In this document: piece by piece, positions 3,062 to 59,210 of the stretch
Layout of the letters: each line of letters begins with the position of its first letter
How positions within the stretch are numbered: the first letter of the stretch is position 1
Source: Patescibacteria group bacterium
Lineage (GTDB): Bacteria; Patescibacteriota; Kazan-3B-28
NCBI GenBank assembly: GCA_028717565.1
Contig: JAQUNP010000002.1
Coordinates: forward strand, 26,054 to 90,053
Direction: 5' to 3'
DNA: 64,000 nt
The notes under the pieces: generated by a model
Databases searched by the model: none
Told to the model about the DNA's origin: nothing
Seen by the model: only the letters and a program-made list of their open reading frames with translations
Position numbers and translations under genes: made by a program

Positions 3062-3208
3062 TATGCCCTGTAGAGAATTTTAGAATGATTATCTAGATTT
3101 TACTTTTTCAGGGACATAGCCATGTTAGTGAAAGGTTGTTATCAGTTTGGAATTGTCGTGAATTTACGATAATCAGGTAAAATTTTCTAAAATCTTCTAC
3201 AGGGTATG
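3062..3208 (+). promoter_or_regulatory. Structured leader element copy 1 (mini-ORF MPCREF plus long hairpin) ending in the rplK start codon
   Basis: The 5' arm TATGCCCTGTAGAGAATTTTAGAA pairs with the 3' arm TTCTAAAATCTTCTACAGGGTATG (about 24 bp, one A.C mismatch). The inner stem is TGATTATC/GATAATCA. The same termini occur at 21115-21254 and 24328-24468. Confidence 0.7.
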
Positions 3209-7502: not shown

Positions 7503-7547
7503 CCCCATTTTGTTCGCCCAAAACGGGGTACAAAAGGGCGCCCCTAT

Positions 7548-7664
7548 CACAAAATGTTAACCAAAAACCAAAATCGTCCTTTCTGGATTTAACCGCAAAC
7601 TCGCCCAAGGGCTCAGACATGCTCATCCAGATCGGACGATTTTGCTATTGGTGGACACATTTTG
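7548..7664. repeat. R1a: short, divergent member of the R1 long-hairpin family
   Basis: Nested stems CAAAATGT/ACATTTTG, CAAAATCGTCC/GGACGATTTTG and TCTGGAT/ATCCAGA. The core is GCAAACTC-[GCCCaaGGGC]-TCAGACATGC, as in R1b and R1c. Confidence 0.6.
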
Positions 7665-7718
7665 CTCAAAGGGGGAGGGGGGTGAATAGAGAAGGGATTA
7701 TTGGTATAACAAAGGTGC

Positions 7719-21114: not shown

Positions 21115-21254
21115 TATGCCCCGTAGAGAATTTTAGAATGATTGCTGAAGATGTACTCTTAGACGGGCATGGGGGTGTAGAGACGGAGGTTTTTATAGCT
21201 GTGCATGAGAATGACAATCAAATAAAATTTTTCTAAAATCTTCTACAGGGTATG
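21115..21254 (+). promoter_or_regulatory. Structured leader element copy 2 (mini-ORF MPRREF) ending in the hisS start codon
   Basis: Same termini as copy 1 (TATGCCCCGTAGAGAATTTTAGAA ... TTCTAAAATCTTCTACAGGGTATG). Inner stem TGATTG/CAATCA. TATAAT at 21099-21104. Confidence 0.7.
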
Positions 21255-24327: not shown

Positions 24328-24468
24328 TATGCCCTGTAGAGAATTTTAGAATAATCAGCTGGAATGCCCCGCTTTTATTGCTAAATACTTTACGAACGGG
24401 CTGCAATGGGCCGGTGGGTTTGACGGCTGATCACAAATAACATTTTCTAAAATCTTCTAAAGGGTATG
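24328..24468 (+). promoter_or_regulatory. Structured leader element copy 3 (mini-ORF MPCREF) ending in the rpsU start codon
   Basis: TATGCCCTGTAGAGAATTTTAGAA ... TTCTAAAATCTTCTAAAGGGTATG. Inner stem ATCAGC/GCTGAT. Confidence 0.7.
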
Positions 24469-43733: not shown

Positions 43734-43937
43734 CCACCTTTTTGCTTGTCCAAAAAGGTGGAGAAAAAGACACCCCGGTCGAGATTGGTCAGAGCCAAAG
43801 GAATTTGGTTCTGTTTGGCAAAGCAGCAAACTCTCCCTCTCCAGTTTGTGCCAAACTGGAGAGGGATCAGACATGCCTTGGCCAAAAACCAAACCAAATT
43901 CAAATTTGGCTTAGCTGACAATCTCTCCAACGGGGGA
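43734..43937. repeat. R1b: 11-bp-stem hairpin plus ~165-nt long imperfect hairpin
   Basis: CCACCTTTTTG cttgtc CAAAAAGGTGG, then a long hairpin with core GCAAACTC-[14-bp apical hairpin CCCTCTCCAGTTTG/CAAACTGGAGAGGG]-TCAGACATGC. Outside the apex it is nearly identical to 49879-50086. Confidence 0.75.
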
Positions 43938-43957
43938 GTATCATCTCTTCTTGTAGG

Positions 43958-44020
43958 ATTTTCAACGGCTCAAAATCCGCCGGCTGGCGGAGAGCCGTTG
44001 AGTTTTGGGCTTCCAGAGCC
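43958..44020 (+). repeat. R2 (long form): nested terminator-like hairpin plus conserved tail
   Basis: CAACGGCTC aaaa TCCGCC ggct GGCGGA GAGCCGTTG agTTTTGGGCTTCCAGAGC. About 60 of 63 nt are identical to 59145-59210 by eye. Confidence 0.7.
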
Positions 44021-49822: not shown

Positions 49823-49878
49823 TGTCTGCCACCATTTGTGTCAGTAGATGGGAAGCGCCACATCGCGCTTCACCGATG

Positions 49879-50086
49879 CCACCTTTTTGCTTGTCCAAAA
49901 AGGTGGGGAAAAAGACACCCCGGTCGAGATTAGTCAGAGCCAAAGGATTTTGGTTCTGTTTGGCAAAGTAGCAAACTCTTCCGGTAGCTATTTTTAATAT
50001 ACAAGGAGACCGGAATCAGACATGCCTTTGCCAAAAACTAAACCAAATTCAGCTTTGGCTTAGCTGACAATCTCTCCAACGGGGGA
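49879..50086. repeat. R1c: near-identical copy of R1b with a different apical hairpin
   Basis: I count about 8 substitutions over ~170 aligned flank nt vs R1b. The apex is replaced by TTCCGGT ..23 nt.. ACCGGAA. The core GCAAACTC / TCAGACATGC is retained. Confidence 0.75.
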
Positions 50087-50429
50087 TTAATTCAGCTCCA
50101 ACGCTCGTAAAAATAAGGAGGAAACATTATAAATGTTATAAAGCCACGAAAGTGGTGTTTTGGCAAGTTTTACACCTATGTTTTTTTGAGGTTGGCAGAA
50201 GACAGGGGACAAATTTGCCACTTTGTCGCTCTGGGAGCGCAAAAGTACTTGACAAACTTGTGTATATGCGCTAAATTGTTCCCAGTTTATTGTTCTCTAC
50301 AATTTGTGCTAGTTAAAAGGGCACAAGAGAGTCAAAAAGCATTTTACAATTTATTCAAGAAAACAAAAGCATACCGTTTGGGGGGATGTTGGTTTTTCTT
50401 GTAAATTGGTCGATGGTTGAGCATTCGTG

Positions 50430-50548
50430 CGTGGCACTCTGGTGACGCAGAGGTTAATATCTGGATATTTTTGAATTAATTTTTAAGGGTATCAATTTAA
50501 GGATAGACACCTTCTCTTCACCGGAGTGCCACGTGGGAGCGCTCCCAC
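50430..50548 (+). other. ~104-nt hairpin plus a perfect 16-bp palindrome in the long leader of the PKD gene
   Basis: CGTGGCACTCTGGTGA (50430-45) pairs with TCACCGGAGTGCCACG (50518-33) around an AT-rich apex. GTGGGAGCGCTCCCAC lies at 50533-50548. A putative promoter TTGACA-17-TAAATT is at 50249-50277. Confidence 0.5.
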
Positions 50549-50675
50549 TGACCCAGCGGAGACGAAATATTTCAATCGTCAAAGTTGGTGCTGTCACCAG
50601 GTGTGATTGCAAACGCCTGGGTGGCGGAGGGCGAGAGCCCGATGCCACGCCTTGCTATGCACCAGGAGGTGCAAG

Positions 50676-58940: not shown

Positions 58941-58966
58941 GCGCTAGACGGCGCTTCAACCCGTCG

Positions 58967-59147
58967 TCACTTTTTTAGAAAAAGTGACATAAAAATCCTC
59001 CGCGGTCGAAAATAGCTGTTCATCTCAAATAACAGCTGCTTTATGCTTATCACCAAACTCGCTACGCTCAAACATGGGCACGCTTAAATGCAGCTGTTAT
59101 TTGGATTCAAGACGCTATTTTCTCCGACGCTCGACTAGGAAGGAGAT
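58967..59147. repeat. R1-like composite hairpin repeat (copy D), related to 19140-19320
   Basis: GTCACTTTTTT aga AAAAAGTGAC hairpin, then CAAATAACAGCTGC (59026-39) paired with GCAGCTGTTATTTG (59090-103). The core-like segment is CCAAACTC gctacgc TCAAACATGG. Confidence 0.5.
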
Positions 59148-59210
59148 TTGGCAACGGCTCAAAATCCGCCAGCTGGCGGAGAGCCGTTGAATTTTGGGCT
59201 TCCAGAGCTG
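59145..59210 (+). repeat. R2 (long form), second copy
   Basis: CAACGGCTC aaaa TCCGCC agct GGCGGA GAGCCGTTG aaTTTTGGGCTTCCAGAGC. Confidence 0.7.

Follow-up and report, generated by a model that had tools for sequence, protein, structure and literature searches.

The DNA analysed here, called the window below, is a stretch of 64,000 nucleotides of contig JAQUNP010000002.1. It comes from a metagenome-assembled genome of the Patescibacteria (candidate phyla radiation, CPR) whose nearest available relatives show 67-75% SecA identity. The gene order greA, lysS, serS, secA, PKD-domain genes, prfB, ftsEX and an M23 peptidase gene is conserved in these relatives. The spacer 3' of secA holds R1c, one of four copies (R1a, R1b, R1c and R1d) of an element, R1, that measures 171-211 nt in the window; the present work concerns the nature of R1c, its relation to the sister copy R1b and the family to which both belong. 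Read on the plus strand, the four copies have a common layout: first a small hairpin, whose 5' arm is rich in T and whose 3' arm is rich in A, next a linker rich in purines, and then a long imperfect hairpin that carries a conserved basal loop, a core and a tip hairpin. The parts of R1c, with R1b for comparison, are as follows.

49879..50089, minus strand: R1c, whole element; limits from identity with R1b, strand from wobble, mirror, triple and covariation evidence
49879..49917, minus strand: 3' domain of R1c, an H-type pseudoknot with predicted major-groove triples, from the parsed fold and family covariation
49918..50085, minus strand: long imperfect hairpin closed by CCCCG/CGGGG, from folds and an alignment of six CPR copies; its conserved basal internal loop is GUC / UCCAA in the plus-strand reading
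49971..49978, minus strand: first half of the core, GCAAACTC on the plus strand, GAGUUUGC in RNA sense
49979..50015, minus strand: variable apical hairpin with a 7-bp stem and a 23-nt AU-rich loop, UUCCGGU-CUCCUUGUAUAUUAAAAAUAGCU-ACCGGAA in RNA sense
50016..50025, minus strand: second half of the core, TCAGACATGC on the plus strand, GCAUGUCUGA in RNA sense
43734..43940, minus strand: R1b, near-identical sister copy 3' of greA, with its core at 43826-43833 and 43867-43876 and its tip at 43834-43866

R1c, R1b and the exchanged tip

An earlier note on this DNA had described R1c as a near-identical copy of R1b with an exchanged hairpin tip, and an exact count confirms it. Where the note had estimated about 8 flank differences over some 170 nt, there are 9 in 174 nt (94.8% identity), four of them in the left 100 nt, from the start through the end of GCAAACTC, and five in the right 74 nt, from TCAGACATGC through the end. 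The start of the element at 49879 stands, and its end moves 3 nt further, from 50086 to 50089. The exchanged segment does lie exactly between the two core halves. Its 37 nt in R1c (TTCCGGT, 23 nt, ACCGGAA; a 7-bp stem with an AT-rich loop) were given correctly, whereas the tip of R1b has 33 nt instead of 31, forming a stem of 15 bp without mismatch around a TGC loop. The note had called the tips unrelated. They are essentially replaced, but they have in common their first and last bases (T.CC at the start, GG.A at the end) and a GGAGA, and their global alignment score lies above 99% of shuffles (p ~0.01). The note had named a simple internal deletion or duplication as a possible cause; no single simple insertion or deletion derives either tip from the other. 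The perfect palindrome of the R1b tip is, we infer, what a fold-back (template-switch) event would leave.

The repeat finder had returned the two halves of R1b/R1c separately, at 88% and 92% identity, because the middle does not align; the block at 88% includes about 26 nt of non-homologous upstream flank. Motifs of 20-23 nt from the flanks occur at only these two places in the window (0.01 expected). The R1c region folds well on either strand in comparison with shuffles (z = -6.9 for the plus and -6.3 for the minus strand). No target-site duplication was found at the ends of R1b and R1c, where the flanking sequences (..GATCCAGC and TCATCTCT.. for R1b, ..CACCGATG and ATTCAGCT.. for R1c) have no common repeat.

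A family with a constant core and varying arms

The core also occurs far outside this genome. A scan of one genome per species with the pattern GCAAACTC-NNCC-N(2-32)-GGNN-TCAGACATGC found the core with a capped hairpin at at least 118 genome loci, often in many copies per genome; by our own estimate (596 Gb, two strands, 31 spacings and 22 fixed bases) chance would give about 2. Carriers among the matches listed are Zoogloea, Aromatoleum and Azoarcus (Rhodocyclales), Comamonadaceae and other Burkholderiales, Nitrospirota, Syntrophorhabdus, Lachnospiraceae including Coprococcus, and Peribacteria. The core, AAACTC-hairpin-TCARACA, always tops a long hairpin whose arms differ between lineages yet stay paired. 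This hairpin measures only about 10 bp in L066 but exceeds 100 bp in Coprococcus, whose copies have near-perfect arms of 46 bp and more. The first three pairs flanking the core are paired in 85-89% of cases, and CG, GC, UA and AU are all used. A covariance model built from the copies found second, diverged modules, with the consensus AAACUC-hairpin-UCARACA(U) between helices; the first such model, built from exact-core copies only, missed the variants of the CPR relative L119 and of R1d, which were found by regular expression and by eye. The constant part of the family is the asymmetric internal loop beneath the tip and not the body, the long stem of which changes by paired substitutions.

This family was not met in the catalogues that we searched. 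With Rfam 15 (4227 models, gathering thresholds), only tRNAs passed in the window and in 14 loci of other lineages, and searches with E-values up to 5-10 over R1c and a Hylemonella copy gave chance hairpin matches only. BLAST with representative copies gave no match in PLSDB plasmids or GenBank phages, the exact core pattern was absent from IMG/VR, and two metagenome scans with patterns specific to R1b/R1c gave no match. A literature search by core sequence returned primers only, and a keyword search for bacterial multi-copy triple-helix RNAs returned no description. A cluster of three tRNA genes lies at 2189-2563 of the window, on the plus strand.

Other readings of the core were tried and dropped. 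For a small open reading frame (ORF) at the core (ATG in ACATGC), the peptides were unconserved and the tip lengths were not multiples of 3. On our own inspection, neither the core nor its flanks fit a canonical k-turn, hammerhead, sigma-54 promoter, attC or boxA. In Betaproteobacteria and Nitrospirota (L015, L060, L091, L013, L038 and others), most modules form inverted pairs, spaced by 200-290 nt, in which the pseudoknot ends face outward, and the core of the second module is usually diverged, e.g. CGGAACTC...TCAGACAGCCG. Transcription of both members of such a pair would give two divergent RNAs whose 5' ends abut.

The tip can be judged against this family. It is usually an 11-nt mini-hairpin, e.g. 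GCCCTGCGGGC, and ranges from 7 to 37 nt. Among 123 copy pairs with a flank identity of 88% or more (over 2 x 50 nt), the tips are at least 90% identical in 107. Large remodelling of the tip with conserved flanks was found in four lineages: R1b/R1c of the window, Nitrospirota (L077, a 20-nt hairpin inserted into the tip loop), Syntrophorhabdus (L065 versus L085, tip remodelled) and Hylemonella (L064 versus L098, tip deletion). The modular RNA that the earlier note had envisaged, with a variable apex on a constant body, thus keeps its variable apex and loses its constant body as far as the whole family is concerned. Its cassette-like exchange gives way to an occasional one-step change; neither discrete apex classes nor recombination signals were seen. 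The tip is a tolerated site of such changes, possibly also a mutational hotspot, and its variability is ordinary for the family and not the mark of recombination at this one locus. The idea that the R1c tip was inherited from the L119 orthologue was unsupported (loop-shuffle p = 0.37).

Pseudoknot, predicted triple helix and strand

The small 5' hairpin and the purine linker had been recognised before on the plus strand. Both features are real, but they are best read on the complement, as half of an H-type pseudoknot; wobble pairs, the mirror repeat, the register of the triples and covariation all point away from the plus-strand reading. In the minus sense the domain runs 5'-S1a, L1 (U/C-rich), S2a, S1b, L3 (usually AGC), S2b (A/G-rich)-3'. 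The S2 helix is a pyrimidine-purine helix of 10-14 bp, for which 5-9 U.A-U or C+.G-C triples are predicted. Because of the H-type topology, loop 1 would cross the major groove of S2 parallel to its purine strand, and a loop 1 so placed has the geometry of U.A-U and C+.G-C triples. R1c parses as follows, in plus-strand coordinates.

49879-49888: S2b, AAAAAGGUGG
49889-49891: L3, AGC
49892-49895: S1b, GACA
49896: L2, G
49897-49906: S2a, CCACCUUUUU
49907-49913: L1, UUUUUCC
49914-49917: S1a, UGUC

The fit of R1c is full: S1 pairs UGUC with GACA, and L1 matches the segment AAAAAGG of S2b in parallel register, with seven triples predicted. One of the nine differences between R1b and R1c falls into L1, which reads UUUUUCU in R1b. 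In R1a, S1 is CGCC/GGCG, L1 is CUUUUGUA, and four U.A-U triples are predicted.

The relation between linker and hairpin is a mirror relation. When haplotypes are compared by the lengths of their A-runs between G's, the purine linker mirrors the purine arm in 5 exact asymmetric classes, such as (4,3) to (3,4) and (2,1,3) to (3,1,2), and in about 8 partial ones, with 0 direct repeats. Replication errors give direct or inverted repeats, not mirror repeats. A mirror-versus-direct test with free sliding windows did not discriminate, and the run-length classes and fixed-register tests were used instead. For the plus strand a mirror identity would have no known rationale, and the purine linker would cross the minor groove.

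The second helix of the pseudoknot has its own control. The hairpin loop pairs with the segment after the linker over at least 5 nt in 35 of 48 haplotypes, compared with 15% in mismatched controls, and the S1 pairing changes by lineage (TCGCC/GGCGA, GTGCCC/GGGCAC, GTACG/CGTAC and GCACG/CGTGC; TGTC/GACA in R1b and R1c). Triple-compatible parallel runs are 5-9 long, and the parallel register outnumbers the antiparallel one by 22:2; the parallel register was chosen among six shifts, with no shift needed in 19 of 25 cases, where the run starts at the helix junction. In alignment A8, S1 and S2 together are 98.6% paired, a percentage that is partly by construction: the proposed structure guided the registration by hand, complementarity was used to place S1 and S2, and many of the sequences are related. 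In the same alignment, 16 of 20 pairs change on both sides (S1 4/6, S2 12/14), and over the first six positions loop 1 agrees with the purine strand, read in parallel register, in 96-100% of cases, with U.A and C.G switching together (12:12, 21:4 and 14:10). The observed level of the loop-1 match was reached by 0 of 500 shuffles, and slid registers gave 55-85%. The same domain and the folds also favour one strand: the non-Watson-Crick pairs of S2 are nine G.U and one A.C in the minus sense, and the minus strand folds better in 97 of 114 copies.

We consider, with a probability of roughly 55%, that R1c encodes, on the minus strand, a structured non-coding RNA whose gene is dispersed in many copies, and that this RNA is composed of a hairpin and a 3' pseudoknot predicted to form a triple helix. 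The proposed RNA of R1c would have its 5' end at about 50085 and its 3' end at 49879. Across the family, the minus strand would be transcribed into a small RNA of about 105-210 nt. Its first domain would be the long imperfect hairpin, the upper part of which carries the asymmetric internal loop 5'-AUGUYUGA...GAGUUU-3'. This loop, with tandem G.A beside the tip stem, may be the site at which a protein or a second RNA recognises the molecule. The conserved loop would be capped by a stem-loop that is free in both sequence and length. If this cap merely closes the helix, it could be replaced without harm, which would explain the tip swap between R1b and R1c. In this genome and in several other lineages, a second domain would follow, the 3' H-type pseudoknot with its U/C-rich loop 1 in the major groove of S2, and the triplex might lock the 3' part of the RNA into a compact fold resistant to 3' exonucleases.

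The pseudoknot domain is present in the window copies, in Peribacteria (L066, and partly L034), in Zoogloea, in Comamonadaceae and other Burkholderiales, and in Nitrospirota. Since it is limited to some lineages, the universal part of the family is the capped core on its hairpin. Several observations weigh against the RNA reading, besides the partly built-in pairing of alignment A8. The pseudoknot/triple domain is absent or different in Syntrophorhabdus, Aromatoleum/Azoarcus and Coprococcus, which have other sequences 3' of the hairpin; the CPR relatives L119 and L121 have no room for loop 1; and R1d and L034 are without S1, the hairpin loop of R1d being only 3 nt and therefore offering no S1 clamp. 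The long stem of R1b has G.U at 0 of 69 pairs on the plus strand and at 4 on the minus strand, and in this it resembles a recent DNA palindrome more than an ancient RNA helix. No minus-strand promoter or terminator common to the copies was found, and R1b alone has a -35/-10-like site. A search within about 4 kb of the 118 loci for a recurrent protein gene, such as one for a transposase, a nuclease or a reverse transcriptase, gave nothing but translations of the element itself and spurious ORFs of high GC content. R1 may never be expressed as the proposed RNA, and this is the main risk to the reading.

Syntrophorhabdus deserves a separate mention. Six of its loci (L002, L005, L014, L017, L022 and L065) have a motif, CGCTCTTTACCCAC, at the hairpin base that resembles the boxA antitermination sequence, and a different conserved 3' domain (GUGGGUAAAGAGCG...AGCGAAACAGUGUUCCUGCGA, RNA sense) replaces the triple-helix pseudoknot there.

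Turnover, probable mobility and relation to known systems

Copies of R1 come and go between relatives. The relative L119 has a diverged copy directly 3' of secA, on the same strand as in the window, and in L121 a copy lies between greA and lysS, on the opposite strand, while L122, L123 and L124 have no R1 copy at these syntenic sites; the greA-lysS spacer is only 55-66 nt long in L122 and L123. Beyond the right end of R1c lies a trace of older history.

50094..50122, plus strand: relic of the base of an L119-type element and of the ribosome-binding site of a lost coaD-like gene, 25/29 identical to L119 13156-13183

None of 2000 shuffles reached the score of this relic. At 50113-50135 a ribosome-binding site and ATG are stranded (TAAGGAGGAAACATTATAAATG, with a stop after 2 codons) and are homologous to the start of the coaD-like gene (CTP_transf_like) that stands 3' of secA in L119. 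Hence the coaD-like gene has been lost in the window, and the site 3' of secA has seen turnover, since R1c adjoins the relic of an older copy. Farther on, the leader of a PKD-domain gene (50200-50606) contains a promoter-like TTGACA...TAAATT at 50249-50277 and a long hairpin at 50424-50539; its motifs TCTGGTGAYGCAGAGGT and CACCTTCTCTTCACYGGA are conserved with L122, and it may be a conserved cis-regulatory leader.

The position of the window copies suggests another explanation, in which R1 is a plus-strand 3'-untranslated-region element of the rplL, greA, secA and M23 genes, acting as a terminator, insulator or mRNA stabiliser in the manner of E. coli REPs. The remaining copies and the hairpin 3' of secA are located as follows.

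7503..7676, minus strand: R1a, diverged copy directly 3' of the stop codon of rplL, with its core at 7595-7602 and 7613-7622 and a 10-nt tip
58966..59135, minus strand: R1d, diverged copy 3' of the M23 peptidase gene, with the core variant CAAACTC-GCTACGC-TCAAACATGG at 59054-59077
49852..49871, plus strand: GC-rich hairpin 3' of secA, GAAGCGC-CACAT-GCGCTTC

The gene upstream of R1a is that of L7/L12 (rplL), as judged from the C-terminus of its protein. All four copies are on one strand, each directly 3' of a plus-strand gene and its GC hairpin; the hairpin 3' of secA is outside R1c because R1b does not have it, R1b and R1d each having their own at the matching position. The T-run of the element after the GC hairpin gives terminator-like matches, and R1b and R1d are then followed by a terminator-like hairpin, D7. 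On the other hand, nearly all genes of the window are on the plus strand, so that co-orientation is expected anyway and the common strand of the copies says little. The L121 copy has the opposite orientation in the same spacer, orientation relative to neighbouring ORFs is about 50:50 elsewhere in the family (by crude gene calls), and wobble pairs and triple-helix topology favour the other strand. We regard a role in the 3' region of these messengers as very improbable. D7 itself, a 57-nt hairpin with a T-run, has two copies that are 96% identical (43963-44019 and 59152-59208). Each stands between an R1 copy close by on its left and a TTGACA-type promoter close by on its right; D7 may act as a plus-strand terminator common to both sites, or be a further small mobile unit.

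R1 appears to behave as a non-autonomous mobile or duplicative element, because its copies multiply in genomes and are gained and lost between relatives. It could be a purely DNA-level repeat, a non-autonomous palindromic element of the REP/MITE kind (MITE, miniature inverted-repeat transposable element) in which RNA structure is incidental and whose core, perhaps in a single-stranded hairpin, is recognised by a transposase or recombinase encoded elsewhere in the genome. Many features agree with this: the many intergenic copies per genome in either orientation to neighbouring genes, their clustering as inverted pairs 200-290 nt apart, the patchiness at syntenic sites with a persisting relic of an older copy, and the near-perfect arms of 46 bp and more in Coprococcus. 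Moreover, long stems are almost purely Watson-Crick, and this near absence of G.U keeps the DNA palindrome alive as an explanation. However, conservation is central rather than terminal, the opposite of a MITE, the ends of R1b and R1c lack a target-site duplication, and no transposase lies near any of the 118 loci. The mirror/pseudoknot covariation and the 9:1 asymmetry of G.U also need a single strand of defined polarity, and in the window that strand would be the leading-strand template (if genes are co-oriented with replication), which is rarely single-stranded DNA. On balance we find a DNA repeat of this kind unlikely.

The REP, BIME and REPIN sequences of proteobacteria are, like R1, intergenic, multi-copy, hairpin-forming, often 3' of genes, found in clusters of alternating orientation and patchy among relatives. 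REPs, however, measure 20-40 nt, are species-specific and have a 5' GTAG-type motif read by a RAYT transposase, whereas R1 measures 105-210 nt, has an asymmetric loop near its tip that is common across phyla, and has a pseudoknot domain. R1 is not a 20-40-nt palindrome with 5' GTAG/GTGG, and neither of its ends has a GTAG-type motif. MITEs resemble R1 in being short, without an ORF, repeated and palindromic overall. They keep their terminal inverted repeats, vary in the interior and usually have target-site duplications, whereas in R1 the centre is constant and the arms differ through paired changes; no common terminal repeats were found, the arms differing between lineages and among R1a, R1b/c and R1d. 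The window does contain a family with the classic MITE layout, D3 (3062-3208, 21115-21254 and 24328-24468; about 147 nt), in which conserved terminal inverted repeats of 25-28 nt (TATGCCCTGTAGAGAATTTTAGAAT ... TTTTCTAAAATCTTCTACAGGGTATG) enclose a variable interior and which folds as a long hairpin (z = -6.3). The R'' (RYYYAAC) and R' (GTTRRRY) boxes and the cassette arrays of attC sites were not found: the ends of R1 are CCCCGGTC.. and ..CAACGGGGG, its conservation is near the tip and not at the base, and its copies follow core genes.

At the RNA level, the telomerase RNA pseudoknot, SAM-II and preQ1-II have the same order of parts as R1 (S1-L1-S2-S1'-L3-S2') and likewise a U-rich loop 1 that runs parallel to the S2 purine strand. 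The features of an H-type pseudoknot are present, namely two helices with compensatory changes (in a model-biased alignment, S1 being independently controlled) and the parallel loop-1 match. R1 differs from these pseudoknots in its longer predicted run of 5-9 triples, in showing no sign of a ligand pocket or template, in lying outside 5' untranslated regions, in its attachment to a long hairpin, in its many copies and in the lack of an Rfam model match. As to the SAM-II, SAM-V and preQ1-II riboswitches, there was no Rfam match and no minus-strand gene downstream of the proposed RNAs of the window. With ENE/MALAT1, R1 would have in common two U-rich strands that clamp an A-rich strand at the 3' side of the RNA, and by analogy a protective role is the natural guess. 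In an ENE, however, the U-rich strands belong to an internal loop within a stem, which captures an A-tract or poly(A) lying downstream, whereas the fold of R1 would be a pseudoknot and occurs in bacteria; no ENE-type internal loop was found in R1, whose U-rich strands are loop 1 and one arm of the pseudoknot. Protective triplexes of the ENE type are described from eukaryotes, their viruses and transposons (PMC13541005), and a 2026 review lists bacterial RNA triple helices from riboswitches and group II introns only (PMC13541005).

A further explanation is that R1 is an orphan guide-type RNA, such as the omegaRNA of TnpB/IscB or the bridge RNA of a recombinase, which serves an enzyme acting in trans and uses the flank as its guide. 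Transposon-encoded guide RNA scaffolds contain pseudoknots. Like omegaRNAs, R1 is structured, multi-copy and equipped with a pseudoknot/triplex domain; the scaffold of an omegaRNA ends at the element boundary, and the identity between R1b and R1c extends exactly to the final base of S2b, the A-rich strand, which is the proposed 3' end of the RNA. Yet omegaRNAs overlap or abut a nuclease gene at the transposon end, whereas no nuclease or recombinase gene adjoins the four copies of the window or recurs at the 118 loci. There was also no match to an Rfam family of transposon-associated RNAs, to IMG/VR by pattern or to PLSDB plasmids and phages by BLAST, and no target-adjacent motif common to the copies. 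A guide function is improbable to us.

In the RNA reading that we prefer, R1 belongs to the dispersed structured elements, a broad class, but is itself uncatalogued, and its pseudoknot/triplex signature is unusual and well supported. A bolder form of this reading, which we hold to be doubtful, is that R1 would be the first family of bacterial small RNAs with a long U.A-U / C+.G-C triplex on its 3' side, a functional analogue of ENE/MALAT1, spreading as selfish non-autonomous units. One possibility is that spread occurs through an RNA intermediate, in the manner of short interspersed nuclear elements (SINEs), with a reverse transcriptase encoded elsewhere. Another is that R1 RNAs are orphan partners of an undiscovered protein that binds the AUGUYUGA/GAGUUU loop.

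To conclude, the R1 family explains many long intergenic palindromes in genome annotation, and its carriers span the CPR, gut Firmicutes and wastewater Betaproteobacteria. The RNA reading is directly testable in cultured carriers, which include Aromatoleum (A. tolulyticum ATCC 51758 and A. evansii KB740), Azoarcus sp. L1K30, Ramlibacter sp. AN1015, Syntrophorhabdus aromaticivorans UI and Coprococcus ammoniilyticus H1_22. If it is true, an abundant structured RNA common to distant phyla has escaped cataloguing, and the few RNA triplexes known from bacteria would be joined by a long triple helix of the pseudoknot type.

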